Source: a virus. Taken from it: a stretch of 64,000 bases of DNA. This document shows, piece after piece, positions 6,690 through 48,979 of the stretch. The notes under the pieces are model-generated. The model was given only the letters and a program-made list of their open reading frames with translations. It made no database searches and was not told where the DNA came from. Position 1 is the stretch's first letter. Every line of letters starts with the position of its first letter. The stretch is taken from positions 1-64,000 of IMG/VR virus record IMGVR_UViG_3300006175_000009; one strand, given 5' to 3'. A program made the translations under genes and the position numbers.

Positions 6690-7172
6690 TTAGCCGATCC
6701 TTGCTCCGTTGGCAACCAGGCTTACGGCCCGAGTGCGGGTGTCGAGCTTGCGGACCGGCATCGGGTGTCGCCCGACGAGATCGGTGATCATCTTGAGTGA
6801 AGGGCCGTTCTCCCACTCACCCTTCGTCGGAGTTAGGGCCCGACAGACCCGGATACGCATGCGAGTGACATGGTTGCTGGAGCGCTCCTCCTCCGGAACC
6901 TCCTCCCAGACGATCCGGTACCACCAGCGATCACCCTTGGCCGACTTGTTCTCACCGGCCAGGAGCATCCGGCCCAGTTCCAGGGTGAAGGTCTTGCCCT
7001 TGTCCTCCCCCCAGCTCGCCTGAGTGTGCCAGCCCATCGACTTGGCGAAGGAGGCGAGCCGCTCAGCAGGCTCAGGAGTGAACCAGCCCATGGGGGAAGG
7101 GGTAGTCACACCTCGGGTGGCAGCACCCCGAGAGACGGACCCTCGCGAGGTCACGTTGCCAGAGACAGCCAT
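6690..7172 (-). CDS. hypothetical protein
   Basis: ORF with GAAAGGA RBS. Confidence 0.6.
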   Translation of the reverse strand: MAVSGNVTSRGSVSRGAATRGVTTPSPMGWFTPEPAERLASFAKSMGWHTQASWGEDKGKTFTLELGRMLLAGENKSAKGDRWWYRIVWEEVPEEERSSNHVTRMRIRVCRALTPTKGEWENGPSLKMITDLVGRHPMPVRKLDTRTRAVSLVANGARIG

Positions 7173-10403: not shown

Positions 10404-10433
10404 AGCTTAGTCTACAGCTTGCGCCGCTGTCAA
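10404..10433 (-). promoter_or_regulatory. promoter for DUF669 gene
   Basis: TTGACA-N18-TAAGCT. Confidence 0.65.
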
Positions 10434-11200
10434 GCAGCTACGTCGTCCGTGGTCAGCTCGCCACCGACAACCTGGGTGATCCGGTGGAAGGTGGGCTCCA
10501 CCATGATCGTCGGCAGGCAGCCCATGCGATCCTTGCCACGGTACTTGCCGATCGGGGAAGTGGTGCCCAGGCGGACCAGCTCGCCGGTTTCAGCGTCCTT
10601 CTCGACCGAGGTGTGGACCACAATGTCCACGAAGCTCATCAGGTCGTTGGCGAACTTCGGGCCCAGAGCCGGACGGTAGAAGATCGACATGTCCTTGTCC
10701 TTGTCCTGCTTCTCCAGCGCGGTGAAGACCGTGTGGCAGGGCAGGTCACGAAGGTTGCGGGCGACTCGACGGAGCTGCTCGGTGACCTTACCGTGCTCGC
10801 CAAGCTCGACCTCGAACTCGTCGTCCACCATGCCAGCCTTGGTGCGCTTGTTGAAGCGGGCCAGGACCAGGTTGTCAGTGAAGCGCTTGGTCAGCTCCGT
10901 CATGGAGTCGATGACCACACCAGTGATGGCAGCAGGGTCCTGGGCCAGCGTGGCGGCGATGTTGGCCGTCAGCTCGGACAGCTCCTGGTAGGTGCGGACC
11001 TTGGCCACCATGATGTTGTCCACCGGGATGCCGAGGTTCTGAAGGGGCCGACGACGAACGCCCGCCTCAACGTCAACCACGATGATCTTGCCGCCAGCCA
11101 GAGCCATGCTCGCAGCGTGGGAAGTCTTCGCAGTACCCGGTTCGCCGTAGTACAGGACGTTGATGAACTCCTCGGAGTCCATGAGCGATTCGAGAGCCAT
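10430..11200 (-). CDS. Sak4-like AAA_24 ATPase (single-strand annealing protein)
   Basis: YGEPGTAKTS Walker A, DVEAG, VVIDSMTE Walker B, C-terminal GKDR. Confidence 0.8.
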   Translation of the reverse strand: MALESLMDSEEFINVLYYGEPGTAKTSHAASMALAGGKIIVVDVEAGVRRRPLQNLGIPVDNIMVAKVRTYQELSELTANIAATLAQDPAAITGVVIDSMTELTKRFTDNLVLARFNKRTKAGMVDDEFEVELGEHGKVTEQLRRVARNLRDLPCHTVFTALEKQDKDKDMSIFYRPALGPKFANDLMSFVDIVVHTSVEKDAETGELVRLGTTSPIGKYRGKDRMGCLPTIMVEPTFHRITQVVGGELTTDDVAA

Positions 11201-11293
11201 AGGGCACCCCTTCGTTTCCCCACCGTTAAGCAGGGCATTTCGGACGATTCGACTGCGAATCCAGAGCCCTGCCTCAACGACAGGGTTGGCGCG

Positions 11294-11361
11294 TGGGACC
11301 GAGAGGAGTTGAACCTCTCTAACACCACCTGATCAGAGTGGCTTATCAACCGGGCGGTCCC
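11294..11361 (-). tRNA. tRNA-Ile(GAT)-like with no D-stem
   Basis: Acceptor GGGACCG/CGGTCCC-A, anticodon arm CCACT-CTGATCA-GGTGG, T-arm AGAGG-TTCAACT-CCTCT; only 13 nt in D region. Confidence 0.6.
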
Positions 11362-11364
11362 TCA

Positions 11365-11490
11365 AGGAAGTTGGTGTGGATTCGAACCACCGCCCGCCGT
11401 CGCGGAAGAGCCTGTCCTTATCAGTCGCTCTCAGCCTAGCCGTAGGTCAATCGGACTCGAACCGAACTACTGCGCCCTGCTCCAACTTCC
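11365..11490 (-). ncRNA. tRNA-like RNA with two T-loop hairpins
   Basis: 9-bp terminal stem GGAAGTTGG/CCAACTTCC; hairpins TCGG-TTCGAGT-CCGA and GTGG-TTCGAAT-CCAC. Confidence 0.6.
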
Positions 11491-11492
11491 AG

Positions 11493-11555
11493 TGAGGCAG
11501 AGGGAATCGAACCCTCAAGACGGGACGCGCGCGCCGTCTGCGAACCTGCTACCTC
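11493..11555 (-). ncRNA. truncated tRNA-like module
   Basis: Acceptor GAGGTAG/CTGCCTC-A, T-arm AGGG-TTCGATT-CCCT, one internal hairpin AGACGG/CCGTCT. Confidence 0.55.
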
Positions 11556-11574
11556 GGGGGCCTAGGAACCCCAG

Positions 11575-11686
11575 TGGACACCGCTGGAGTCGAACCAGCG
11601 CATTCTCAACCCTAGGACCGACTCGGCCGACGTCGGTTTGGTAACTAACCATCCTAGAGCGTGGGTTGAAAATCATCCCCGTGCCC
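11575..11686 (-). ncRNA. tRNA-like (Ala-identity) RNA with long branched core
   Basis: GGGCAC/GTGTCC-A (G3.U70, A73), T-arm GCTGG-TTCGACT-CCAGC, long stem TTTTCAACCC/GGGTTGAGAA enclosing a three-way junction. Confidence 0.6.
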
Positions 11687-11689
11687 AAG

Positions 11690-11746
11690 TGGGTTCCTCA
11701 GGAGTCGAACCTGAGCGCTTACCTTAGTTGCCCAGTCTCGGAACCC
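11690..11746 (-). ncRNA. tRNA minihelix-like module
   Basis: Perfect GGGTTCC/GGAACCC-A acceptor and TCAGG-TTCGACT-CCTGA T-arm joined by only 25 nt. Confidence 0.6.
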
Positions 11747-11748
11747 AA

Positions 11749-11970
11749 CTCCGCGTCAACGCTCGGCAAAGCGGAGCGGAGAAGACCAAGCGGTTCCTTG
11801 ACTGGGAGGAGGTCACCCCCATGCCCAGGGGCAGGTAAGCCTTCCTCGAACCCATGGTCGGGCAACCCCGTGGAGAACCCGACACCAACAGCTTAGAACC
11901 TAGGTCGGACAAGTCCTTCCCTGGGATGGGCCTTAGCCCCCTGCGACGGACTCCCGGTCCCTTGCTGCTG
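11749..11970 (-). ncRNA. Ms1-like structured RNA (~220 nt)
   Basis: No credible ORF; directly downstream of a strong promoter; ordered blocks GGCTAAGGCCC, GAAGG, CCGACC, CCACGGGG, CGCTTGGT resemble recalled Ms1/MTS2823 blocks; 3' hairpin CTCCGC..GCGGAG. Confidence 0.5.
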
Positions 11971-11975
11971 AAGCA

Positions 11976-12005
11976 AGTCTATCAAGACCGTGGGGTCTGG
12001 GTCAA
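11976..12005 (-). promoter_or_regulatory. promoter of RNA operon 1
   Basis: TTGACC-N18-TAGACT. Confidence 0.75.
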
Positions 12006-12017
12006 GTCGCTAGGGCT

Positions 12018-12140
12018 GCTACGGCTACTGCGGCTGCAACGGTTGAATCCTTATTGTTCCTTCTACTTCTTACTACTTTTCTCTTGGGACTTTCTTCAAA
12101 AGAACCGTAGTAACCATAGAAAAGGGCCTCTGACCTGGGG
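12018..12140. repeat. origin-like element, copy A (inverted copy at 61457-61577)
   Basis: Exact shared 16-mer TGCAACGGTTGAATCC and 20-mer ACCGTAGTAACCATAGAAAA flanking a pyrimidine/AT-rich core; many CTAC/GTAG repeats. Confidence 0.8.
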
Positions 12141-12247
12141 TTTTGTGCTCCTGGAGCTGATGCATCTGCTATGGCACCTACTGTAGCTGTCTCTCCCGGA
12201 TACCCTTCTGTTGTAGGAGTAGTTACAGGGTGTAGTCGTCCGGATAC

Positions 12248-12291
12248 AAAAAAGAGCCCCCACTACGGCTGAACCGTAGCAGGGGTCTTTC
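12248..12291 (-). terminator. intrinsic terminator after P4-type primase
   Basis: Hairpin ACCCCTGCTACGG..CCGTAGTGGGGG followed by CTCTTTTTT on minus strand. Confidence 0.65.
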
Positions 12292-12292
12292 G

Positions 12293-14890
12293 TCAGGCAG
12301 CGATGCCAACGCCTCCGTAGAAGGTGGTGCGTACACCGTCGGTCATCTTCTGGGTCTTCTTCAGGCCCGGAACGGCGGCCATCAGCTTGACACCGAACTT
12401 GTTCTGTGCGCCAGGGTGGTGACCCTCAATCGCGCACCAGTCCTGCCAGTGCTTGAAGAGGCGGGCGCACGGGGTGTAGACCTCGGGCCTGATGACGCAC
12501 TTGTCCTTGAGGAACTTGGAGATCGGGCTGGCCACGTCGGCAGCCATCTCAACCAGGGTCTTGGAGGACTCGGGCTCGGTGAAGCGGTTGCGGGCCACCA
12601 GGCGGTCGAGACCGTCCAGAGCCCAGTTCAGGATGGCGGGAAGCTCCTTCAGCAGCCGCTGCTCAAGGGTGTGGTCCTCCTTGCCCAGGAAGCTCTGGGT
12701 CATGGTCAGGAGCAGCATGCGGTTGTTGATGGCCCCGGAGGAGTCCAGGAGCGAGGGGATCTCGTTGGACAGGAGCATCATGCGGGAGGTCAGCTTGCCG
12801 GTCCAGATGGACTGGTACTTGCGGTTGACGTCAAGGTAGTCCTCACCCGTGATCGAGAGAAGACGCTCGACAACCGTCTCACCGCCCTGCTTGGGCATGC
12901 GGGCGTCTGGGATGATCGCCATGGACTTGCCGATCAGGGGGCCCAGTCCGAAGTCGCTGACCAGGCTGCTCATGGTCGGGGAGGCGATGTTGGCCGAACC
13001 GATCAGAGCGGACAGAACTCGGGCGATGGTGCCCTTGCCGGAACGAGGCGGACCGATCAGGACGAACATCTTCTGAAGGTCGGTGCGACCCGAGATGATG
13101 TACCCGAACCACTCCTGGAGCAGAGCCCTCGCAGCGTCGTCGTTGCCCCAGACGTTGTTCAGGAACTCGATCCAGTTCGGGCACTCGGTGGCGTTCTCGT
13201 CGTACGCGAACGGAAGGCTGTTGGTGTTGAAGTAGCGCGGGTTGTGCGGGTGAAGCTTGCGCTCGACAGCGTCCAGCAGGCCGTTCGTGAAGGCAACGAG
13301 ACGGTCAGGGTGCTCTCCCTGCTCACCGGTCCAGGAACCATCCGTCAGGCTGTCAGCGATGGTCGTGAGGCTCTTGAGGGAGTTCGCAACGTCGTTGACC
13401 CGCGCGGTGTTCGGGTTCCAGTCCTTCCGCTTGACCGTGTCCTCGCCCCGCTCCTCGTACTTGGCGTCCTCCAGGCGACGGTAGATCAGGCCCTGGACGT
13501 GGTCCTTGGACAGGACGTCCCAGTGGGTCTGGGTCCAGCCGTACCAGGTGTCGTTCCAGCGGCGCAGGATCGGGGTGTTCTCCACCAGCCAGCCGTTCTC
13601 CAGCAGGTGTCGTGCGACCTTCTGGGGCTTCGACGGGTGGGGCACCATGGTCTCGCTCATGGCATCCTCCAGGGTGAAGGACAGAACCTCATCATTCGTG
13701 CTCCCTTCCGGAGTGGGGTTGGCAGTTCCATCGAAGCTGAACAGGGGGGTGAAGTCTTCCACGGTGTTCTCGGTCGCCTTTCGGGCGTTGTTGGGGGCCT
13801 CGGTGGAGGCTCGCTTGTAGTCCTCGTCGCGCTTGGGGGCCTGCATCGGGCTGTTCAGACCGGCTTCGTACCCGCGCAGTGCCACTGTAGCAGCATTGCC
13901 CTTTGAGTTGCCAAGCTGTTCGGCCGCGCGGATCAGCTCCTCACGGGCGAAACCGTCCGACAGCTCACCGCCAGCGACGTAGTTGCCGACCGCAGCACCC
14001 GCCTTGTAGATCTCCTGGTTCCTCTGACCAGCGCCCGCAGGCACGGCCACCAGACGCCCCAGGATGCCATTCAGAGCCCCGATGCCGTACTGGGTGCCCT
14101 TGGGGTCCAGGGAAGCCTTGAAGACGCCGGAGGAGGGCTTCTGAGCCTTCTTCTCGTCAATCCCCAGCGCCTTGATCATGTACTCAGCGCTGACACGCTC
14201 GAAGTCGGGGGCCGGAGCAGCGATCGGAGTGGCCTGGGAGGGTTCTTCCCGCTTGTTGTTGAAGCTGCCGGGCAGACGAAGAACCGCAGCCGCGTGGGTG
14301 ACGGCCTTGTCTCCGCCCAGGTGGGCGAACTTCTCGGCCAGCGCCCGGTTGATCATCTGAAGCTTGACCCCGTCGATCGGGGCAGCCAGTGGGATGACGT
14401 ACTGGAAGTTCCGGCCAGAGCCCGAGTTCCAGATGAACGCGCCCAGGTCGTATAGCCACTGGAGAGCCTCGTTCATGGCGTCCTCGCCAGGGAACTCGAC
14501 GTGGTTGACGTCGTTGTCGCCCCAGACCGCCCAGATCTTCTCCGAGGCGTTCGCCTTCTGGCGCTTCGAACGGAGCTGCGGACGGGCCTCAGCGTCGATC
14601 GGCTTGAAGGAGCCCGGAGAGAAGTACATCTCGCGAGTGGTCGCACCAGCCATCCAGTGGCCCCCGACCTGGGTCAGAGCGTCAGCCAGATTGGCCGGGA
14701 AGTAGTAGGTCTGGTACCAGCGACGCTGGAGCTTGCCGTCGATCAGGGTAACCTCGTGCTGGGGAAGGTCTTCGACAGCGACCCGGAGCTGAGGCAGGGA
14801 GGCGAGGGTGACCATACCCTCGGAGTTCGCGTGGATGGCGTCCAGCATGGTCAGCGCGATCGACGTGTCGATCATCGGCTTCTCGGTCAT
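12293..14890 (-). CDS. primase-helicase: RepB-like AEP domain + D5_N + P4-family SF3 helicase
   Basis: WGDND, SGSGRNFQY, GDKAV...VLRLPGSFN; AFTNGLLD, LLQEWFGY, GPPRSGKGT, ITGEDYLDVNRKY; start MTEKPM at 14890. Confidence 0.88.
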   Translation of the reverse strand: MTEKPMIDTSIALTMLDAIHANSEGMVTLASLPQLRVAVEDLPQHEVTLIDGKLQRRWYQTYYFPANLADALTQVGGHWMAGATTREMYFSPGSFKPIDAEARPQLRSKRQKANASEKIWAVWGDNDVNHVEFPGEDAMNEALQWLYDLGAFIWNSGSGRNFQYVIPLAAPIDGVKLQMINRALAEKFAHLGGDKAVTHAAAVLRLPGSFNNKREEPSQATPIAAPAPDFERVSAEYMIKALGIDEKKAQKPSSGVFKASLDPKGTQYGIGALNGILGRLVAVPAGAGQRNQEIYKAGAAVGNYVAGGELSDGFAREELIRAAEQLGNSKGNAATVALRGYEAGLNSPMQAPKRDEDYKRASTEAPNNARKATENTVEDFTPLFSFDGTANPTPEGSTNDEVLSFTLEDAMSETMVPHPSKPQKVARHLLENGWLVENTPILRRWNDTWYGWTQTHWDVLSKDHVQGLIYRRLEDAKYEERGEDTVKRKDWNPNTARVNDVANSLKSLTTIADSLTDGSWTGEQGEHPDRLVAFTNGLLDAVERKLHPHNPRYFNTNSLPFAYDENATECPNWIEFLNNVWGNDDAARALLQEWFGYIISGRTDLQKMFVLIGPPRSGKGTIARVLSALIGSANIASPTMSSLVSDFGLGPLIGKSMAIIPDARMPKQGGETVVERLLSITGEDYLDVNRKYQSIWTGKLTSRMMLLSNEIPSLLDSSGAINNRMLLLTMTQSFLGKEDHTLEQRLLKELPAILNWALDGLDRLVARNRFTEPESSKTLVEMAADVASPISKFLKDKCVIRPEVYTPCARLFKHWQDWCAIEGHHPGAQNKFGVKLMAAVPGLKKTQKMTDGVRTTFYGGVGIAA

Positions 14891-15005
14891 GGTTTCCCTC
14901 CCAGTTGGTGTCTTTCGGACTTGCTGACGAGGAAGACTTAACCACAATCAGTTGTGCTCTGTCAATCAAGAGAACCCCCTCCGGTTGGACCGGAAGGGGC
15001 CTCTT

Positions 15006-17738
15006 CTAGCTGCCCGTAGCCTTTGACAGGATCAGGTCAGTGTAGCGACTCGGGATGGCGCGGTACTTCACGCTCAGGTCCCTGGTGACCGTGTTGCCCT
15101 GGCCGTCGTCCATCTCGACAGACTTGGCCTTGACGGGCGCTCGCTGCTCTGCGTTGACCCCACGTAGCTCGGTGTCGATACCAGCGGCGTCAGTGAGTGA
15201 TCGAGTGCGGTAGTCCTGGCGTCCCACCTGTGACCAAATGTCGGCCAGCTTGGGGACGTTGACCCTGAACTCTCCGTCGCGCTCGTTCCTGTAGACCGCC
15301 ATGACCAGACCGTGCTCACCGGGGCGAGTCGGGAACCCAAGGTGACGCCAGACGGTCGGGATGACCTCCAGGATGACGCTGGAAGCGTTCCCCAGATCCT
15401 CCTGAGAGCTGATCCACTCGTCTACCAGGCCGACCCACTTGGAGTCGCCTGTGAGGCTCTCCAGAACCCGCGCACCGGCCTTCAGGTAGCCGTAGGACTG
15501 ACCGACACGAGACGACCCGTCAACATCTCCGATGGCCTTGCTGTGGCACAGGATCGAAGCCACGAGGCTTCCGGCGATCTTGGTGAAGTCGTTGTTGAAG
15601 CGGGCCTTGAGGGGCTTGACGTCAACCTCGTACTGGTTCTTGCCAGGGTGGCGGAGCGACATGCGGTCCACGATCGTTGGCATGTCCAGCTTGATCAGTC
15701 GGTCACGGTTGGCCTTCTGGGAGTTGAAGTTGGTTGTCATGCCCTCGGACGAGATGATCGTAGCAGCGCGGAACTTGCCACCAGCGCGCTTGCTCGCGTT
15801 GGCCACGCTCATCTTGTTCTTGGCACCCTTGGTGATCGCCAGGCGGATCAACTGCTGTAGCTCTTCGTTGATGTGTACATCGTCAAACCAGACCACGCCG
15901 TTGTTGTTGGCCGTGTAGGCGTTCTCCGCAGACGCACGAGTCCAGGCACCACCTGAAGTGTCTACCCCGATCATCTGGAGTCCGGACTTGGTGTAGCTGG
16001 TCTTGCCCGACTCCGCAAGGCCCTCGATCTGGAGAGCGGGGAACATCTCTCCCTCGGTGAACTGGCCACGCAGGACGACCATGACGAGCCAGGAGCCCAG
16101 AACGGCAGCCACCTTCTCGTCGTGCCAGGTCAACCACTCCTTGAAGATGCTTACGGCCTCTTCGCACGACACTTCGAACCCGTAGGCGGACTTCGAGTTC
16201 TCCGTAGCGTACTCGGATGGCAGGCAGTCAGCGAAAGGTGCCAGTGCTGCTCGGCCAGGCTTGATCACACCTTCGTTGGTGATGAAGGCGTTGAAGATCT
16301 GGTTCCAGCCGGTGAAGCCGATCTCGGAGAGTTCAGGCAGGTCGAAGCTGTCCAGGAACATGGTGACCTGGTCCGCTGTCACGAACTGACCGTTCGCCTG
16401 GTTCGGAGGGTAGGTTGCCCCACCGAAGGCGCGCATCCACTTCTTGAACTCCCTCTCACCGATCAGCTCTTCGGAAGAGATCATCCGCTCGCCGATCAGC
16501 TCGCCAGAGCCCTTGAAGACGTTGACACGCCAGGCGCGACGGTCGGTGCTCATGATCACACGGGTAGGCACCAGGCTGAAGTTGGCCACAGGCGCGTACG
16601 CCACGGTCTTCTTCCCAGACTTGTCCTCCTGCATGAACCGAACGGTGAACTCGTCGTCCTGGATGCCCAGGAAGCCAGTGCGCTTGGTGAACTGCTCCGC
16701 GTTCGCAGGGATGGCCGGGTTCTCGGGCTTGTTGAAGATCGGGTTGCCTTCACGTTCACGCTTCTTGGCAACCTCCTTCGCCCAGAACCGCTGAAGCTGG
16801 CCCGTAACTATCTCGTCTGTCTGCGGCCTGCGGGAAGCACGCTCATAGTTCAGGACAAAGGCGAGAGCAGCCTCATAAGGAAGTCCGGCCTTGACGAACA
16901 TCTGGGCAACGCCACCAGCAACGGCAGTGCTGTTGTCGTTTCCTCGACCGGAAGCACCAGGAGAGGCGAGAGCCTTGACGTACCAGGGAGTTGAGGGATC
17001 GACTTCGTCCGGAATGTGGACCGAACCAGGCATGTCCTCGGGGAGAATCTCAAGATCGTCATTCTCCTTGACCTTGGGCAGGTTCTGAAGGTGGTCAACC
17101 CATGCCTGAGGAAGTTCCGGCAGTTCATCGACTCGCGGAACGCCTTCACTGACCTGACCGACTGGACCGTACCAGCGGTACTGGCGAACCTCTCCCGTGG
17201 TTTCGTTGACTACCTCGGAAGGCCAGGCGACCGCGTACCGATAGTTGTGCTGTACGAAGTCGATGAAACCCGTCTTGGAAGGCCACAGAAGCCCGCTGGG
17301 AACACGAAAGAACCGAATCCCTGACGGGTTGGCGAACCCGCGTGAGGTAGAGCGCCAGGTGGCGGGAAGGGCTCCGAGCTGCTCTTCGAGTTCCGCAAGC
17401 TGGTCTGCTCCATCCTTCTCGACACCCTTCTTCTCGTAGTGATCCACGTCGATGCCGATGACGTTCTCAGGCATGCGCAGAGCTACGTTGTTGTTGCTGT
17501 TGTGCGCCCACACGTGGATCTGGTGATCGGTCGGGTAGATCCCGGTGTTGACCATGCCAGTGAACCCCGAAGGAGGGGTCATCTTCTTCATGTGAGGCAG
17601 AGGAAGAACGCCACGCCACCCGAACTCGGTGTAGAGGTTGACGCTGCTGGCGTACGGACCCTTGCCCATGTCTGCGGAGAGCTGGCACCCGTCCTTAGTG
17701 CACGGAGCCTTAGTGGCTGTGTCGATCATCCTTGTCAA
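15006..17738 (-). CDS. bifunctional primase-polymerase (Prim-Pol) fused to a P-loop helicase-like domain
   Basis: GWRGVLPL..KK.PP.GF, NVALR, IGIDVD, STSRG; C-terminal EGLAESGKTS Walker A and WFDD Walker B. Confidence 0.8.
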   Translation of the reverse strand: MTRMIDTATKAPCTKDGCQLSADMGKGPYASSVNLYTEFGWRGVLPLPHMKKMTPPSGFTGMVNTGIYPTDHQIHVWAHNSNNNVALRMPENVIGIDVDHYEKKGVEKDGADQLAELEEQLGALPATWRSTSRGFANPSGIRFFRVPSGLLWPSKTGFIDFVQHNYRYAVAWPSEVVNETTGEVRQYRWYGPVGQVSEGVPRVDELPELPQAWVDHLQNLPKVKENDDLEILPEDMPGSVHIPDEVDPSTPWYVKALASPGASGRGNDNSTAVAGGVAQMFVKAGLPYEAALAFVLNYERASRRPQTDEIVTGQLQRFWAKEVAKKREREGNPIFNKPENPAIPANAEQFTKRTGFLGIQDDEFTVRFMQEDKSGKKTVAYAPVANFSLVPTRVIMSTDRRAWRVNVFKGSGELIGERMISSEELIGEREFKKWMRAFGGATYPPNQANGQFVTADQVTMFLDSFDLPELSEIGFTGWNQIFNAFITNEGVIKPGRAALAPFADCLPSEYATENSKSAYGFEVSCEEAVSIFKEWLTWHDEKVAAVLGSWLVMVVLRGQFTEGEMFPALQIEGLAESGKTSYTKSGLQMIGVDTSGGAWTRASAENAYTANNNGVVWFDDVHINEELQQLIRLAITKGAKNKMSVANASKRAGGKFRAATIISSEGMTTNFNSQKANRDRLIKLDMPTIVDRMSLRHPGKNQYEVDVKPLKARFNNDFTKIAGSLVASILCHSKAIGDVDGSSRVGQSYGYLKAGARVLESLTGDSKWVGLVDEWISSQEDLGNASSVILEVIPTVWRHLGFPTRPGEHGLVMAVYRNERDGEFRVNVPKLADIWSQVGRQDYRTRSLTDAAGIDTELRGVNAEQRAPVKAKSVEMDDGQGNTVTRDLSVKYRAIPSRYTDLILSKATGS

Positions 17739-17782
17739 CCATTCTGCTTTGAGACCTTGATTCTAACGGTTGGCAATGACTC

Positions 17783-18007
17783 TCAGGCAGCCTCTTCCAC
17801 GTCCACAACAGTGAGAAGGTCGATGGGGTTGCAGCCAAGCATGTCGGCGATCTTGTTGATCGTAGGCAGTGTGGGGATTCGCTCGCCACGCTCGAAGTAG
17901 GTGGCCGTTCCGTTGGAACCAAGGATGCCTGACACGTTGGCCCGTGTCATTCCACGGCGCTCCCGAATGGCCTTCATGGCCTCACCGTTAAACTTCAGTT
18001 CCTGCAT
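17783..18007 (-). CDS. XRE-family HTH regulator
   Basis: IRERRGMTR..V...L......ERGERIP......IADMLGC. Confidence 0.85.
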   Translation of the reverse strand: MQELKFNGEAMKAIRERRGMTRANVSGILGSNGTATYFERGERIPTLPTINKIADMLGCNPIDLLTVVDVEEAA

Positions 18008-18128
18008 CTCGTATGTCCTTTCGCGTGTCCTTGCGAGACACAGTTAAGCACATACGTAGGAGTCCAGTCAAGTGTGCTCTTTGGGCAAAAAGAAGGCCCT
18101 CCCAGGACGAGGATACCAGGAGGGCCGG

Positions 18129-18203
18129 TCGCTCAGGTTGGTCTCGAACCAACGCATCTCCCCGTTATGAGCGGGGTGCCTTAACCAGCTTGGCCACTGA
18201 GCG
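18129..18203 (-). tRNA. tRNA-Met(CAT) (elongator-type; Ile2 not excluded)
   Basis: Canonical cloverleaf CGCTCAG/CTGAGCG, anticodon loop CT-CAT-AA. Confidence 0.85.
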
Positions 18204-18208
18204 AAGAG

Positions 18209-18287
18209 AGCGAACAGACGGAGTCGAACCGTGATCCACCTGGGTTGCAGCCAGGCCCCAGTTGCCCACTGAGTTAGGACTATCCGC
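18209..18287 (-). tRNA. tRNA-Cys(GCA), 8/4 acceptor/T-stem fold
   Basis: GCGGATAG/CTGTTCGC-U73, anticodon arm CCTGG-CTGCAAC-CCAGG, T-stem ACGG/CCGT. Confidence 0.65.
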
Positions 18288-18333
18288 AGAGCTGGGGAAG
18301 GCGGCTCGCCAGCCGTGCGTCCCTTACCCCAAC

Positions 18334-18413
18334 GTGGAGAATCTGGGAGTCGAACCCAGCTCCTGGAGCTTCCCTCGTGGGGCTTTGACTCCAGTCGAAA
18401 CCAACTATTCCCC
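18334..18413 (-). ncRNA. mini-tmRNA: tRNA-like domain only, no tag ORF
   Basis: GGGGAAT-AGTTGG-TTTCGAC start, G3.U70/A73 acceptor, short P2 CTGGAG/CTCCAG, GA-G-CTGGG-TTCGACT-CCCAG. Confidence 0.75.
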
Positions 18414-18472
18414 ATACCAGACACCTCTCGGGAAATCTCAAGGAGGTGGGCTTTTACTGTCTGATTGCCGCG

Positions 18473-18545
18473 AGCCCCCGACAGGATTCGAACCTGCGTC
18501 ACCGACTTACAAGGACGGTGCTAAACCAGCCTCAGCTACAGGGGC
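18473..18545 (-). tRNA. tRNA-Thr(TGT)
   Basis: Canonical cloverleaf, loop CT-TGT-AA. Confidence 0.85.
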
Positions 18546-18678
18546 AGCATGCCAGTTTGTTTTGTCAAGCGAAGCTGACACTCTCCGCCTTGGAAGACAC
18601 GACCTGACCTACACCCGCGTTAGCGGTTAACAGGTAGTAATTGTAGCCGCAGATCATTACGACTTCATAGCGTGCCCG

Positions 18679-18746
18679 TGGACCCACGGAGAATCGAACT
18701 CCGCTGGAGTGCCTTGCAAAGGCTCCCTGTCACCTTGACCAGGCCC
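18679..18746 (-). tRNA. tRNA-Ala(TGC) with shortened D-arm
   Basis: G3.U70, A73, loop TT-TGC-AA, D hairpin GTCA-AGG-TGAC. Confidence 0.65.
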
Positions 18747-18818
18747 AAAAAGCATCATAACCGGAACAGCTTGTCCACCGGTAGTGCCTCCCCATGAATC
18801 GAGGTCTTTGATGCTACG

Positions 18819-18901
18819 TACCGAAGGTGGGACTCGAACCCACAATCCCGAAGGCACTAGTTCCTAAGACTAGCGTGTATATCCAGTTCCACCACTCCGG
18901 C
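18819..18901 (-). tRNA. tRNA-Leu(TAG)
   Basis: Canonical class II cloverleaf, CTAGT-CTTAGGA-ACTAG, variable arm. Confidence 0.9.
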
Positions 18902-18917
18902 ATGTTCAGTTGTTGCG

Positions 18918-19012
18918 TGATCCGAGCAGGAATCGAACCTGCGTTACCCAGCCATCCTAAGCCTCAAGCCTAGGCATCAATCCGGGCGGCTTTCCATTTA
19001 GCCTATCAGACC
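18918..19012 (-). tRNA. tRNA-like RNA with extended anticodon arm
   Basis: Normal acceptor, D and T arms; anticodon stem CCCGG/CTGGG encloses an extra hairpin CCTAGGC-TTGAG-GCTTAGG. Confidence 0.6.
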
Positions 19013-19015
19013 AAG

Positions 19016-19084
19016 GGAGACGCAGACGCGGGGGGAGGATCTACGTCTCCACTAGAACCAGGTGGGGGGGCCCTGTGTTCGTGG
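19016..19084 (-). ncRNA. 6C RNA-like
   Basis: Two adjacent hairpins with loops GCCCCCCCA and TCCTCCCCCCGCG, starting at the predicted TSS. Confidence 0.75.
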
Positions 19085-19088
19085 TACT

Positions 19089-19119
19089 AGCTTAGCACAG
19101 TCCATAGCCCCCTCGTCAA
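19089..19119 (-). promoter_or_regulatory. promoter of RNA operon 2
   Basis: TTGACG-N19-TAAGCT. Confidence 0.65.
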
Positions 19120-19126
19120 GCCAGAA

Positions 19127-20074
19127 TCAGTGTCGAGTGAAGTTTTGTGCGAAGCCCAGCTCAGCGAGGTTGCTCAGCTCCTCCTGGTCCCCGTACTTCC
19201 GGCCTCGAAGGCAAGCCTCGGTGAAGGAGCACATGTACTTGCAGGTGTCTTCCTTCGGAGTGCGCTCGTGCCGGTTGTCGAGTCCGTAAGCCTTCAGGAC
19301 GGTCGCTGTGGCCTCGCGTGCGATGGTGTCCAGCTCGGAGGGCATCCGGTCCATGTAAGTGCGGGAGAAGCGCTCTTCGGGGGACTGCATCTTTGGCCGG
19401 ACGCCAGCTCGTTCGCCAGCTTCCTTTCGAACTTCCCAGCGCTCGATCTCGCCAGGAATGTCGCCCTTGTTCATCTTGGTCTTGACGGCATTATGAACAG
19501 CCATGAAAGACGGGTTGCCCAGTTCCCGTAGGGCCCACAGGTAAAGGCTGAACTGGTCGCTCAGGGCGTAGTCCTGCTCCTTCGGAAGAGTGGAACAGGT
19601 CTTATGGTCAAGTACGAGAAGGCGGTTCTTCTCATCGCGGACGATCAGGTCGATGGAGCCCTTGAGGATGATCTCCCGCTGTCCTTCGAAAAGGGTCGGG
19701 AGGGGGACTCGGAACTTGTGTTCGACGGCTCGGATGTTCCAGAGGGAATCTCCGTAGTAGCGCTCGTGATAGCCTTCGAACATCCAACGGACAATAGCCA
19801 CAGCCTCCTCATCCGAGTCCGACTGTACTGGTACTGAGTCGAGTACATGATGAGCTGCCTTCACGCATTCCGCGAGAGGCTTTCCCTCCATTCGACCCAG
19901 ATAGTACTGCTCGACAACGGCATGGAAAAGGGTGCCCTTGCCCAGAGCTGTGTTCAGGTTGTTCTTCTTGGACCACCGCATCTTGTACTCAAGCATGTGC
20001 TTGTGAGGGCACGTGCGGTAGCTGTTGATCTCGGACCACGAGACAACTAGGGGCTCTGGGTTAGGGCTGGACAT
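19127..20074 (-). CDS. Cas4-like / RecB-family PD-(D/E)XK exonuclease
   Basis: SWSEI..Y..CP, GTLFH, GSIDL, DHKT, Q...Y; C-terminal CKYMC....AC (Fe-S-type Cys arrangement). Confidence 0.85.
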   Translation of the reverse strand: MSSPNPEPLVVSWSEINSYRTCPHKHMLEYKMRWSKKNNLNTALGKGTLFHAVVEQYYLGRMEGKPLAECVKAAHHVLDSVPVQSDSDEEAVAIVRWMFEGYHERYYGDSLWNIRAVEHKFRVPLPTLFEGQREIILKGSIDLIVRDEKNRLLVLDHKTCSTLPKEQDYALSDQFSLYLWALRELGNPSFMAVHNAVKTKMNKGDIPGEIERWEVRKEAGERAGVRPKMQSPEERFSRTYMDRMPSELDTIAREATATVLKAYGLDNRHERTPKEDTCKYMCSFTEACLRGRKYGDQEELSNLAELGFAQNFTRH

Positions 20075-46276: not shown

Positions 46277-48979
46277 CTAGGCCATGCCCCGCATCTTCAT
46301 GAGTGACGACCATGCAGCCTCCCGCTGCGCTGGGTCGGGGCTGGTGCGGAACTGAGACTCCAGCTCGCGCATCATCATCATCTGAGTCTGCTCCGCAGTC
46401 TCCGCGATGGTGCGAACAGGTGTGGCGCTCTTGTTGACTGGGTGAGAAAGAGCAACACCCTTGAACGCTGCTACAGACGGATCTGGCATGCTGGCCATTG
46501 AATCCAGAGTGGACTGTAGCTTGTCATTACGCTTGCGCTCTGCCTTCAGCGACTTGGTGACGGTGCGCAGCTCCGCTGCAAACTCGTCCTTCATCTGCTG
46601 GAACAGGGCAGTCAGGTCGGTCACCTGTGGGGTAGCCGCCTTTACAACATCAACTGTATCCGACTTGCTGGCCGGAGAGCCAACAGGCTGCGGAATCTCA
46701 GTCTCGCCCATTGGCACGTGGCCAAGGTCCTTCACGCCGCCCGGTGAGCCCATTGGGCACAGGTCTGGGAAGGTGTGGCTGATGTGGTCGTGGATCGCGT
46801 TCATCGCAGCCTTGGCGGCCTGACGAGAAGCGTCACTGTAGTCAACCGGCTTGACGACGCCAGTCTGGGATGGGTACTTGATCGGACGTGGGTCCATGCT
46901 CTTGTTCGACGGAGACTCGTCCGAGTGACCCGAAGACAGATATCCACCAGTGAAGTCAGACGCGGCGATCGAGCCAGACGGAACATCGTGAGTGTTCGGT
47001 CCCTCGGCACCAGGCGAACGACGAGCGTGCCCCTCCTGGATGAATGGGCGCTTGAACTGGCCTGCACGTGGCTGAGTCGGGACCGGAGCAGTGCCCGGAC
47101 CCATCTGAGCATCTGAGAACGCCTTGTGAAGTTCCATGCGGGCTTCGGTCAGCTCGGAGACGTGGTTCGTCGCCATGTTCTTCAGAGTCTCAGCAGCCTG
47201 CCAACGCTCGGTCGCACGGGCAGCCTCATCGAGAGGGGCTACGGAAGCAGCGTGAAGGGCCTCGTTCTGCCAGTAGCTCACGTCGATCGACTTGAGGGAG
47301 TGCGCTGGGTGGCACTTCTCGGCGTCGGCCGGGTGGAAGCCATCGCAGGTGAGGTCGTGGAGAGCACCGAGGTCAGAAGGCACGTTCAGGCTCTTCAGCA
47401 GCATGGCTGTGACCATCACGTGATCGTCGCTCTTGGTGGCTGGCAGACCATCTGGAGTAGGCGTCTTTCCGGGAACCGGAACCTTGCCGTTCTTCTTGGG
47501 CTTCTTCTCGTAGTACTCGGTGTCCGAGTCCAGAGACTTCGGCTTGCCCTGCTTCTTCGGCTTCTTCTTGGCGTCCTTGACAGGGGTGACCGCAGTGGTC
47601 TCCTGTGGCTCGCCAACAGTCTTGGAGCCAGGGACGTCAGCCTTCATGGCACCTGGCTGAGGAGCACCCTCGATGGGCATCTGGACTGTCATGTGGCCGT
47701 TCGCGTCGGTCGGGTCGGCTGGTGCCCCCTGGTCTGGAGTGGCACCCTTATCTGAGCTGTCAACTGGAGCACCGCACATAGGGCAGAAGTTCATGCCCGG
47801 ACCAACATCATGTCCGGTCTGGTCCATGTGATCCTTGGCGAGAATTGCACCAGAAGGAGCGTTCGGGTCCGCCGGAGCTGCCGCAGGATCGTGTGCAGGA
47901 GGAGCTGTGTGGCCTGTAGGGGCCGCCTGAGCCTGCGGAGTCGGGTGCTGAGGGGTTACCTGCCCTGGGGCCCCGTGAGGCGCTGGACGAGGTGCCTGAG
48001 CCTGTGCGTGGGCCGGTGGCGTAGGAGCTGCACCCGGAGTCGGTGGTGTGTGAGGTGGCATGCCACCCTGTGGAGCTGGAGTACTCATGGCACCCTTCTC
48101 GGCGCTGTCGTTTGACCAGGAATCAGGAAGGGCCGACTCGAAGCCCTTGCGACGCGCGATTGAGGTCAGGCGACGCTGGAACTTCTCCATGGGAATCTGG
48201 GGCTTGGCCCGCCCATATGAGCTTACCGCGTCGGAAACATCTGCCGCAGTAACGACCGGGAATCGACGGCCCTTGGGGTCAACGAAGTCCTCGGAAGGGA
48301 TCTTGTCCCGATCGACTCCACCGCCAACATCCGGGTCCATGTCCCGCTTCTCGGCAACACGACGGTGCTCCAGGAGCTTGGCCAGATCGGACGGCGAGAA
48401 TGTACCCGCAGCCTTCTGGACAGTCTCCTCTTCGGGGCCCTCGTGCAGGATGCCGGTGATGGCAGCGTTCGCCCCAGCAGCCTTGGCCAGCTCTAGGTAG
48501 CTCGAAGGGTTGGCCGGACGGTCCACGATGGACAGCTCGGAAAGCTCGCCACCACAGATGATACCACCACGTGCACGGCCAGTTGGGTCGCGCTTGATGA
48601 CTGGGTGCGAGATGCCAACGGAGTAGGCGCGAAGAACACCCTTCTCAACGAGGCGCTGTGCAGTCGGGTCCACAATGACGGACTTGACCCAGTGCTTGCC
48701 ATCGCCGTCTCGGTCGATCTCAACCGAAAGGCCCTTGCCGACCGGGCGCTGAGCGTCATGGCTCATGCGGACATTTCCACCGGTCTCAAGCCACTTGGCG
48801 AGCGCTCCGGCAGACCAATCGGGGTCTACGATCTGGTAGTCGCTGTCAACAGAACCGTCAGTGGCCACGCCCTTGACGATTAGGTCGCCATCCGCATCCT
48901 TCTCCATCTTGGAAATGGGGAAGCTGACCGTGATGGTTTCGACCTGTGTCGATTCGACTTCGGTTAGCGTGGTGGCCAC
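46277..48979 (-). CDS. prohead protease (HK97-type) + scaffold fusion
   Basis: V.G.AT...D.D.Q, NVRMSH, AYSVG, ELSIVDRPANP; long Pro-rich and coiled-coil C-terminus. Confidence 0.85.
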   Translation of the reverse strand: MATTLTEVESTQVETITVSFPISKMEKDADGDLIVKGVATDGSVDSDYQIVDPDWSAGALAKWLETGGNVRMSHDAQRPVGKGLSVEIDRDGDGKHWVKSVIVDPTAQRLVEKGVLRAYSVGISHPVIKRDPTGRARGGIICGGELSELSIVDRPANPSSYLELAKAAGANAAITGILHEGPEEETVQKAAGTFSPSDLAKLLEHRRVAEKRDMDPDVGGGVDRDKIPSEDFVDPKGRRFPVVTAADVSDAVSSYGRAKPQIPMEKFQRRLTSIARRKGFESALPDSWSNDSAEKGAMSTPAPQGGMPPHTPPTPGAAPTPPAHAQAQAPRPAPHGAPGQVTPQHPTPQAQAAPTGHTAPPAHDPAAAPADPNAPSGAILAKDHMDQTGHDVGPGMNFCPMCGAPVDSSDKGATPDQGAPADPTDANGHMTVQMPIEGAPQPGAMKADVPGSKTVGEPQETTAVTPVKDAKKKPKKQGKPKSLDSDTEYYEKKPKKNGKVPVPGKTPTPDGLPATKSDDHVMVTAMLLKSLNVPSDLGALHDLTCDGFHPADAEKCHPAHSLKSIDVSYWQNEALHAASVAPLDEAARATERWQAAETLKNMATNHVSELTEARMELHKAFSDAQMGPGTAPVPTQPRAGQFKRPFIQEGHARRSPGAEGPNTHDVPSGSIAASDFTGGYLSSGHSDESPSNKSMDPRPIKYPSQTGVVKPVDYSDASRQAAKAAMNAIHDHISHTFPDLCPMGSPGGVKDLGHVPMGETEIPQPVGSPASKSDTVDVVKAATPQVTDLTALFQQMKDEFAAELRTVTKSLKAERKRNDKLQSTLDSMASMPDPSVAAFKGVALSHPVNKSATPVRTIAETAEQTQMMMMRELESQFRTSPDPAQREAAWSSLMKMRGMA

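Follow-up and report, generated by a model that had tools for sequence, protein, structure and literature searches.

Two gene-free regions of an actinophage probably form tRNA-operon-type cassettes of decoding tRNAs and tRNA-like non-coding RNAs

We analysed a window of 64,000 nucleotides (nt), the first 64 kb of the 78,117-bp linear IMG/VR virus record IMGVR_UViG_3300006175_000009 (~77% complete, ~60% GC), in which two regions of the minus strand without genes carry arrays of tRNA-shaped modules. In our assessment both regions are probably tRNA-operon-type cassettes, made of decoding tRNAs together with tRNA-like non-coding RNAs. They combine features of known phage tRNA operons with embedded stable RNAs and of the stripped-down transfer-messenger RNA (tmRNA) of mycobacteriophage DS6A, and at least two kinds of tRNA-like element found in them are conserved, covarying RNA families spread across actinophages. 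The phage itself is a lytic-module soil actinophage, probably with Streptomyces or a relative as host; its replication proteins are 24-28% identical to counterparts in Streptomyces, Arthrobacter, Microbacterium and Micrococcus phages, and both RNA regions sit among minus-strand replication genes. All modules, genes and signals of the window described below lie on the minus strand.

The T-loop motif GGTTCRANYCC occurs in 11 exact copies in the window, all on the minus strand and all within the two regions (11305-11711 in region 1, 18220-18939 in region 2). The chance expectation from shuffles is 0.79, none of 100 shuffles reached 11 copies, and the remaining 14 kb of the 78-kb record hold none. 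Seven open reading frames (ORFs; 57-144 aa) tested inside the regions gave no PHROG match, while the helix-turn-helix (HTH) regulator gene downstream does match. These results bear out the original prediction of two gene-free minus-strand regions with tRNA-like arrays. Reading of the sequence combined with folding gave the following layout: region 1 consists of a leader of ~225 nt followed by modules M1, M2, M3, M4/5 and M6, and region 2 of a 71-nt leader followed by module b, tRNA-Leu, d, tRNA-Thr, h, j and tRNA-Met, with spacers between them. Every module has an acceptor stem, a T-arm and a discriminator, and none encodes CCA; the discriminator is an A followed by C in 8 of 11 modules. For 8 of the 10 minus-strand T-arms scanned in the regions, the 3' strand that follows has a perfect 7-bp partner 32-70 nt upstream, whereas stray 7/7 acceptor partners occur elsewhere at ~0.0016 per position. 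An origin of the modules as attP sites or tRNA fragments was considered and rejected, because both acceptor strands are present and covary.

Four tRNAs were called in the record, all of them in region 2, by ARAGORN and by Rfam at its gathering threshold. Three are canonical, as had been predicted: tRNA-Met(CAU) (18127-18203; Rfam score 59 bits), tRNA-Thr(UGU) (18473-18545; 57.6 bits) and tRNA-Leu(UAG) (18819-18901; 51 bits), the last being 85-88% identical to Streptomyces phage tRNA-Leu. The fourth, module b, is an Ile(GAU)-like gene interrupted by a 27-nt insertion in its anticodon loop. M1, M2, M3, M4/5, M6, d and j were not called as tRNAs at threshold by either ARAGORN or Rfam (RF00005), and these uncalled modules gave only weak tRNA-Sec or mascRNA-type Rfam matches of 16-25 bits. 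The modules of region 1 are separated by gaps of 2-4 nt (M1-M2, 3 nt; M3-M4/5, 2 nt; M4/5-M6, 3 nt), whereas the spacers of region 2 measure ~0, 16, 71, 133, 59, 45 and 5 nt; the tight packing expected of both arrays thus holds for region 1 and not for region 2.

Module h (18335-18413) has the form of a tmRNA reduced to its tRNA-like domain, with no coding part. It scored 50.5 bits against the Rfam tmRNA model (RF00023; gathering score 47) at 18332-18413 in a search limited to the region, and was missing from the whole-window threshold run. The alignment covers both ends of the model, with 16 nt taking the place of 308 of its 374 positions. The elements kept are a G3·U70 acceptor, the GGUUUCGAC segment, a P2 helix of 5-6 bp, a canonical T-arm and A73, so that the hallmarks of a tmRNA tRNA-like domain (G3·U70 acceptor, GGNUUCGAC segment, T-arm and discriminator A) are all found in h. 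By contrast, ARAGORN detected no tag peptide, and the resume codon, tag frame and pseudoknots of an mRNA-like domain are missing from h. Judged by its sequence, h is a stripped-down, DS6A-like form and not a working tmRNA.

A strict pattern built from the features of h returned 100 IMG/VR stretches comprising 71 distinct sequences of 29-66% GC. The window copy was aligned with 61 relatives (62 rows), the search pattern having left the 3' strand unspecified. In this alignment both partners of all six P2 pairs vary, G3·U70 occurs without exception (62 of 62), 89.6% of cells are paired compared with 46-60% in controls with slid partners, and the covariation score is 0.637 compared with 0.09-0.13 in the controls. 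With at least 62 distinct IMG/VR sequences, the stripped-down tmRNA is far more widespread than the single published phage case, a breadth in metagenomic phages that is apparently unreported in the literature searched. Not counting the 3' acceptor strand, these metagenomic forms are ~65-70 nt long; CCA is encoded in 23 of the 71, and many stand alone beside structural or lysis genes, outside tRNA arrays. Arrays of aberrant modules were tried as a general companion of the stripped-down tmRNA and dropped, the nearby 'free' T-loop motifs being mostly chance matches in coding sequence.

A tmRNA consisting of the tRNA-like domain only has been published for mycobacteriophage DS6A (Hudson, Lau and Williams 2014, PMC4131195; tmRNA database 2025, PMC11915505). 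According to the 2014 paper, which cites Mao et al. 2009, a similar molecule strongly inhibits tmRNA, perhaps by titration of SmpB (PMC4131195), and the 2025 database paper reports that the DS6A form expressed in E. coli inhibits the endogenous tmRNA (PMC11915505). The DS6A form is like h in length (~80 nt), in its G3·U70 acceptor, GGNUUCGAC segment, short P2 helix and T-arm, in having no tag frame or pseudoknots, and in being phage-encoded in an actinobacterial host setting. Unlike the DS6A form, h is embedded in a tRNA cassette, and inhibition has been reported for the DS6A form, whereas h is known from sequence. Module h is thus a new member of a known, little-documented kind of RNA. Most likely it would compete for host SmpB, and perhaps for alanyl-tRNA synthetase (AlaRS), hindering ribosome rescue during infection. 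The proposal that the phage makes an SmpB decoy has therefore gained the covariation of the family and the precedent of DS6A, and by analogy an interaction between h and SmpB is plausible.

M3 (11493-11555) belongs to a second family, built of a 6-bp acceptor, the segment GCAGGUUCGC, a variable hairpin, a T-arm and discriminator A, with no anticodon. Searched by blastn against cultured phages, region 1 gave one match, from M3 to intergenic sequence that is unannotated in Streptomyces phages Paedore and Loofah, and an element of the same type lies 4 nt upstream of tRNA-Phe in Streptomyces phage Omar. The M3, Paedore and Omar copies have in common GCAGGUUCGC and a small preceding GGGG...CCCC hairpin, which in the window (11556-11574) is directly 5' of M3 and has its equivalents in the same place in Paedore and Omar; their acceptors, hairpins and T-stems differ by compensatory changes. 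A looser pattern recovered the same architecture in further phages of IMG/VR as well as in a sizeable mycobacteriophage group, where the element is present in 271 records (megablast, with BillKnuckles as representative). In BillKnuckles it sits in a gap of ~300 nt between a DNA methylase gene and gp76; the Paedore, Omar and BillKnuckles elements are all intergenic and oriented like the flanking genes. Many of the 97 matches to the looser pattern were coding-sequence noise and were removed by the acceptor-partner filter, and a match of the strict pattern in a pentapeptide-repeat gene was set aside as chance.

Across 17 sequences of this family, all six acceptor pairs and four of five T-stem pairs vary on both sides, paired cells make up 91%, compared with 34-48% once the partners are slid, and covariation scores 0.643 against 0.07-0.19 in the controls; the sequences had been pre-selected for an acceptor partner, which biases the acceptor figures upward and leaves the T-stem figures unbiased. 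GCAGGUUCGC is invariant in all 17, and thermodynamic folds render it as a mini D-arm of 2 bp with the loop AGGUUC. The third arm differs in length and loop among sub-families and has no conserved anticodon, although the CGAYAWSACCGN loop is conserved within the mycobacteriophage sub-family. We defined the family by a covariance model (R1) with a 6-bp acceptor, invariant GCAGGUUCGC, variable hairpin, 5-bp T-arm with UUCGAU(U) loop, and discriminator. M3 scores 66 bits (E 3e-13) against R1, a value that is partly circular, M3 being one of its 17 training sequences, while the similarity to Paedore found by blastn is independent; no other module of the window exceeds 15 bits. The family has no Rfam match and no description in the literature searched. 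It is apparently an undescribed, widespread tRNA-like component that hundreds of mycobacteriophages also carry. Its mini D-arm and T-loop, both fixed, point to a partner that reads the tRNA elbow, and for M3 and the other anticodon-less modules alike the likeliest partner would be a protein or enzyme recognising the elbow together with the acceptor.

A stricter GCAGGUUCGC motif was found in only 5 of ~185,000 species-representative bacterial genomes, and this rarity argues that the M3 family is mainly phage-borne. The rare bacterial copies include L208:175-244 and L210:6354-6422, in Peribacteria and Peregrinibacteria genomes, together with L209:6476-6545 (Acidimicrobiia) and L207:5951-6021 (Parcubacteria). 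Two copies from the candidate phyla radiation begin GGGGAUG; the L208 copy ends CAUCUCC and the 3' strand of the L210 copy is CUGUCUCC, which gives a G3·U70 acceptor. With that acceptor and GCAGGUUCGC, these copies unite traits of the M3 family with traits of the tRNA-like domain of tmRNA.

Each cassette opens with an RNA that is not tRNA-shaped. The region 2 leader (19013-19083), which abuts b, consists of two hairpins whose loops, GCCCCCCCA and CCUCCCCCCGCG, each contain a run of at least six C, and its fold is far better than shuffles (z -4.46). Its best Rfam match is 6C RNA (RF01066), in a full-model alignment with both C-rich loops in register, at 27.7 bits against a gathering score of 47 (E 0.028, 121-nt search). 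Runs of six C are strongly avoided in the phage, with 11 matches against 64 expected from dinucleotide-preserving shuffles, and two of the ~9 such sites on both strands of the window are the leader loops, 34 nt apart. The under-representation affects C6, and hence G6, on both strands, other sites being for example at 7007, 10358, 13744 and 23528. The 6C RNA of M. tuberculosis binds mRNAs via its C-rich loops (PMC6486639). Like 6C RNA, the leader has two adjacent hairpins with runs of at least six C in the loops and aligns over the full length of the model; unlike it, the leader scores well below 47 bits, has a longer second stem, is phage-encoded and is fused to a tRNA-like module. That the leader is 6C-like in shape, as the original prediction held, is plausible, while membership of the 6C family lies below the Rfam threshold and mimicry of 6C RNA finds weak backing. 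The 6C match ends exactly where b begins, and an RNase P cut at b would therefore create the 3' end of the leader.

The region 1 leader (11747-11970, ~225 nt), whose internal ORFs have no PHROG match, had been taken for an Ms1-like RNA acting on RNA polymerase. It gave no match to Ms1 or to any other Rfam family at E<=10 in searches of 271 and 1171 nt. Its minimum-energy fold is a series of separate hairpins, no better than shuffles (z -0.54), and lacks the rod-like shape with a central bubble of Ms1/6S-type RNAs. Neither the Ms1 likeness nor the polymerase mimicry derived from it is supported.

Region 1 is preceded by a promoter-like site (11976-12005; TTGACC-18-TAGACT with TG upstream), the only sigma-70-like site called in the 8.4 kb from 11000 to 19400, and upstream of it a terminator-like hairpin (12285-12257) follows the primase-helicase gene. 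Region 2 is closed by an intrinsic-terminator-like hairpin with a U-run (18096-18120; hairpin called at 18113-18096). RNase P and RNase Z accept minihelices made of acceptor and T-arm, and RNase P matures the 5' end of tmRNA. In the model that we propose from these sequence features, in which co-transcription, cleavage and any action in trans are putative, each region would be transcribed as one polycistronic precursor, region 1 from its promoter-like site and region 2 up to its terminator. At every module, host RNase P would cut on the 5' side and RNase Z on the 3' side after the discriminator, whereupon the CCA-adding enzyme would complete the end. Since acceptor stem, T-arm and discriminator are shared by all modules, this single feature would release and stabilise each RNA and set the 3' ends of the leaders. 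Three classes of product would result: decoding tRNAs (Met, Thr, Leu, very likely a compact Ala(UGC), and possibly a Cys(GCA)-like and an Ile(GAU)-like tRNA); non-decoding RNAs (the stripped-down tmRNA, M3, and the minihelix and large-core modules M1, M2 and M4/5); and non-tRNA RNAs from the 5' ends, namely the 6C-like double hairpin of region 2 and the unclassified RNA of ~225 nt of region 1. The tRNA cluster of phage T4, with two co-transcribed small stable RNAs that are matured by tRNA-processing enzymes, is similar in that a phage tRNA operon also yields stable RNAs other than tRNAs; it differs in the phylum of its host and has no sequence relation to the window.

A layout comparable to that of region 1 is found at the right end of cluster A mycobacteriophages, which we reached via a weak T-arm match. 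In L5, D29 and StarStuff, transcription from the early promoter Pleft yields a non-coding RNA that is processed, stable, toxic to the host and present in extreme abundance (Dedrick et al. 2017, PMC5712189), and ~90% of the L5 transcripts end at 51,140-51,190 (PMC5712189). We found that this 3'-end zone falls inside an unannotated tRNA-like module of L5 (51,134-51,226; GGGTAG ... TCGGG-TTCGATT-CCCGA-CTACCC-A). D29 has a module with the same acceptor and a compensated T-stem (CCAGG/CCTGG) at 47,980-48,084, and Pukovnik a 50-nt minihelix (51,871-51,920) with a second module just upstream. These cluster A modules lie directly upstream of gene 89. Like region 1, the Pleft locus consists of an early promoter, a non-coding RNA, one or more tRNA-like modules and then genes, with no classical terminator; it differs in that the Pleft RNA, several hundred nt long, has no sequence similarity to the region 1 leader, and in that cluster A phages have one or two modules where region 1 has five. 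The locus gives the best available experimental hint that tRNA-like modules define RNA ends, a link drawn from coordinates; PMC5712189 itself is silent on tRNA-likeness. For the predicted tRNA-shaped punctuation, cluster A thus offers a plausible precedent of layout, whereas cleavage would follow from substrate rules.

This raises the question of whether the anticodon-less modules do anything else, or serve only in cis, as places where RNase P and RNase Z cut and as stabilisers of 3' ends, keeping leader RNAs and tRNAs apart from one another and from the downstream mRNA. Such a role would suit region 1, for which no terminator was called before the AAA_24 gene, as well as the M3-family members, which are intergenic inside operons and whose 'anticodon' hairpins vary in length and sequence; it would also suit L5, where the abundant RNA ends within a module just before gene 89. 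Nonetheless, five consecutive modules in region 1 exceed what punctuation needs, a specific partner is suggested by the invariant GCAGGUUCGC and by loops fixed within sub-families, such as CGAYAWSACCGN among the mycobacteriophages, and the G3·U70 pair and SmpB-side features that the h family keeps in 62 of 62 sequences would not be needed for punctuation alone. We therefore consider punctuation as the sole role unlikely, although it is the most probable of the alternatives.

Other modules offer less to compare. M1 (11690-11746) is a 57-nt minihelix with a 7-bp acceptor (GGGUUCC/GGAACCC), a T-arm, discriminator A and, in place of an anticodon arm, a 24-nt core with the D-loop-like UGGGCAAC. In M2 (11575-11686; 112 nt) the core is large and branched, and the acceptor, of 6 bp, is closed beside the T-arm in the unconstrained minimum-energy fold (z -2.2). 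M4/5 (11365-11490), 126 nt long, combines a 9-bp acceptor (GGAAGUUGG/CCAACUUCC) with a 4-bp T-stem and an inner T-arm-like hairpin; it recalls tRNAs with 8/4 or 9/3 arrangements in this 9-bp acceptor and 4-bp T-stem, but its core is no cloverleaf. In region 2 there are in addition a structured spacer ending in U5 (18747-18817; z -0.32 when folded together with d; Actinomyces-1 at 29.9 bits, below the threshold of 39.1), the 133-nt spacer e (18546-18678; z -1.29), for which no match was found, and the spacer hairpin i (18289-18333), recognised by its fold. Searched by blastn against cultured phages, M1 with M2 and M4/5 with M6 gave only matches of T-arm length (E 2-8). A pattern TGGGCAACT...GGTTCGANTCC designed for relatives of M1 and j returned ordinary tRNAs with this sequence in the D-loop or variable arm (Ser, Ala and Met where ARAGORN was run) and no relatives, after which a derivation of M4/5 and j from 9/3 tRNAs was dropped.

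Close relatives of the phage, ~95% and ~89% identical, were available as contigs assembled from public reads (40 of 858 differences listed). In the 95% relative, region 2 shows 26 substitutions over 1067 nt (2.4%), compared with 3.5-9.0% in the flanking coding contigs, which makes it the most conserved part of the 8-kb stretch.

Several observations weigh against the cassette reading. For M1, M2, M4/5, M6, b and j no homologues suited to a covariation analysis were found, and the single-sequence folds of the modules without relatives are mostly no better than shuffles. The 95% relative skips 11420-11482, a 63-nt indel inside M4/5, and in the 89% relative the dinucleotide TG stands exactly in place of hairpin i, while 18748-18916 is replaced, h and j being retained; parts of the cassettes evidently turn over quickly. 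An RNA sequencing library containing the 89% relative covers coding genes as well, so that its signal is indistinguishable from DNA carry-over (the low depth over 11200-12000 in this library was not taken as silence). The 6C match of the region 2 leader is below threshold and absent from the whole-window, region-wide and single-family genome searches; the single-family search also gave nothing above threshold in Corynebacterium glutamicum, an actinobacterium that we take to carry a true 6C RNA. The promoter scan called no promoter for region 2, although TTGACG and TAAGCT can be seen by eye with 19 nt between them, and the PD-(D/E)XK gene upstream is not set off from the region by a terminator; of the promoters proposed for both regions, only that of region 1 has a called site. 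Finally, the phage record, itself ~77% complete, contains no genes for SmpB, CCA-adding enzyme or RtcB, which would link the RNAs to a pathway encoded by the phage.

Part of these observations would be expected if the regions were a decaying tRNA array, the modules being pseudogenes with lost cores and their acceptor/T-arm pairing a reflection of how they were picked. Decay would explain why ARAGORN and Rfam reject most modules, why close relatives show indels at M4/5, at hairpin i and around tRNA-Leu, and why M1, M2, M4/5 and M6 have no detectable homologues and most folds do no better than shuffles. It does not account for M3 and h, whose widespread families show compensatory changes while their unpaired motifs stay fixed, nor for d, which has annotated homologues. 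The conservation of region 2 in the 95% relative is likewise at odds with it, as are the perfect 7-bp acceptor helices of M1 and M6 and the M4/5 indel, which leaves both acceptor strands and the T-arm intact. We regard decay of the whole array as improbable. The pattern in the relatives, coarse evidence as it is, fits selection on some modules with free turnover of spacers and cores. The assertion that the degenerate tRNAs are functional and not pseudogenes accordingly has support for M3 and h, which covary around fixed unpaired motifs, and for d with its tRNA-Ala homologues, whereas the M4/5 indel and the loss of hairpin i speak against extending it throughout.

Not all modules outside the canonical three have lost their decoding features. 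Several are indeed anticodon-less, as the degenerate cores ascribed to all of them would imply, but d (UGC), j (GCA) and M6 (GAU) keep a 7-nt anticodon loop. Module d (18679-18746) is a compact tRNA-Ala(UGC)-like RNA with G3·U70, A73, the D-arm GUCA-AGG-UGAC and the loop UUUGCAA. It is homologous to the annotated 69-nt tRNA-Ala(tgc) of the Flowerpower-type Streptomyces phages Dennebes and FlowerPower, and comparison with Dennebes reveals a compensatory change in the D-stem, from U·G in Dennebes to C-G in d, with the UGC loop, G3·U70 and A73 conserved. The Flowerpowervirus tRNA arrays of Dennebes and FlowerPower hold compact 69-nt tRNA-Ala(UGC) and tRNA-Cys(GCA). Like this tRNA-Ala, d has a 4-bp D-stem with the 3-nt loop AGG, UUUGCAA, G3·U70, a T-arm and A73; what sets d apart are three G·U pairs in its acceptor and an A·A mismatch in its anticodon stem. 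The Dennebes copy passes ARAGORN, whereas d is called by neither ARAGORN nor Rfam, the ARAGORN rejection being presumably due to the A·A mismatch. Very likely d would serve as a compact decoding tRNA-Ala(UGC), and its tRNA-Ala nature explains the weak Actinomyces-1 and mascRNA matches over it, which we discarded. The 20-gene tRNA array of Dennebes also contains unannotated gaps of ~80 nt (237-319) and ~240 nt (1258-1500), so that inserts other than tRNAs in actinophage tRNA arrays are not unique to the window.

Module j (18209-18287) is tRNA-Cys(GCA)-like: its acceptor has 8 bp, its T-stem 4 bp and its D-stem, which follows 6 unpaired nt, 6 bp, and it carries the 7-nt loop CUGCAAC and a 5-nt variable region. 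Acceptor/T-stem arrangements of 8/4 or 9/3 have been described for tRNAs (Mukai et al. 2017, PMC5389517). As the mark of such tRNAs and of tRNA-Sec we took a 12- or 13-bp acceptor branch divided in this way plus a long variable arm. The 8/4 fold of j and its D-stem recall these RNAs, while its short variable region, which forms no long arm, and the unpaired nt before the D-stem depart from them. Its Rfam tRNA-Sec score is 24.9 bits, below 47, and its T-arm matches Dennebes tRNA-Ile. M6 (11294-11361), 68 nt long, has a perfect 7-bp acceptor, no D-stem and the 7-nt loop CUGAUCA, which reads GAU (Ile-like) with C at position 37. Both j and M6 could possibly decode, as Cys(GCA)-like and Ile(GAU)-like tRNAs. 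Module b (18918-19012) has an intact acceptor, D-arm and T-arm and is called Ile(gat) by ARAGORN and tRNA by Rfam (43.7 bits), but the 27-nt hairpin inserted in its anticodon loop makes its decoding ability doubtful; we know of no splicing route in bacteria for an insertion in the anticodon loop. Flanking the inserted hairpin, in the inner part of b (~18945-18982), is an internal loop in which each strand contains GA (UUGAUG / GGAUGG); by eye it resembles a kink-turn or a loop-E-type protein-binding motif.

Several 'degenerate' modules with anticodon loops may thus simply be unusual tRNAs. Extended to all of b, d, j and M6, this would give an expanded decoding set of working tRNAs that supplement those of the host or escape anticodon nucleases. 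In its favour, the 7-nt loops of d, j and M6 contain U33 and the sensible anticodons UGC, GCA and GAU, ARAGORN accepts the compact 69-nt Dennebes tRNAs, and d carries the alanine identity pair G3·U70. Against it stand the complete lack of an anticodon loop in M1, M2, M3, M4/5 and h, the loop insertion in b, the missing D-stem and C37 of M6, and the six unpaired nt of j. We judge it quite improbable. Least probable of all, and in our opinion very unlikely, is a full decoy toolkit with an Ms1 mimic acting on RNA polymerase, 6C on mRNAs, tmRNA on SmpB and degenerate tRNAs on anti-tRNA nucleases. Its tmRNA part has family-level support and literature precedent, and a 6C-like shape is present. Yet no Ms1 signal was obtained, the 6C match stays under the Rfam threshold, no context related to defence was found, and the anticodon-less modules offer no anticodon loops, where known tRNA-targeting defence nucleases mostly cut. 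Decoys against anti-tRNA defences, which had been part of the original prediction, are accordingly unsupported.

Returning to the cassettes of decoding tRNAs and tRNA-like RNAs, we tentatively advance a broader proposal, for which the odds are as yet against us: actinophages may carry a general and so far unrecognised class of anticodon-less tRNA mimics, comprising the GCAGGUUCGC family, stripped-down tmRNAs and minihelices, made from early promoters together with small regulatory RNAs, whose top half recruits RNase P, RNase Z and the CCA-adding enzyme and occupies host factors. If this were true, the mature mimics would occupy SmpB, AlaRS, EF-Tu or defence sensors, all readers of the tRNA elbow and acceptor, and the host toxicity reported for the cluster A Pleft RNA would thereby be explained. 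Annotation pipelines currently discard such tRNA-like elements, and the GCAGGUUCGC element is unannotated in the mycobacteriophage and Streptomyces-phage records that we inspected. The 'degenerate tRNAs' of phage arrays are a mixture of some unusual decoding tRNAs, some non-decoding mimics and perhaps some fast-evolving filler. All 271 mycobacteriophage records with a matching sequence are from phages of the tractable host M. smegmatis, so that interference with ribosome rescue, binding of GCAGGUUCGC and the RNA ends of L5 and D29 can be tested in an established genetic system.

In the order of transcription, the genes around the two regions are a PD-(D/E)XK nuclease gene (19127-20074) 5' of region 2, the HTH regulator gene (17783-18007) directly downstream of region 2, a PrimPol protein gene (15006-17738), a D5_N/DUF5906 primase-helicase gene (12293-14947) between the PrimPol gene and region 1, and the AAA_24 protein gene (10430-11200) directly downstream of region 1. 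No close relatives were found through the D5_N primase protein in the viral or metagenome contigs searched; a protein search placed it in a 100%-identical cluster present on 10 contigs. Neither region matched the model of the bacterial Y-RNA-like YrlA, which joins a tRNA-like domain to a Ro-binding stem (Rfam, E<=10). Rhizosphere metagenomes are the main source of near-identical DNA; runs in which few of the sampled words occurred did not enter into any habitat assignment. A non-coding stretch of ~230 nt (12020-12250), rich in short repeats such as GCAGCCGCAGTAGCCGTAGCAGCC, separates the primase-helicase terminator from the promoter of region 1.

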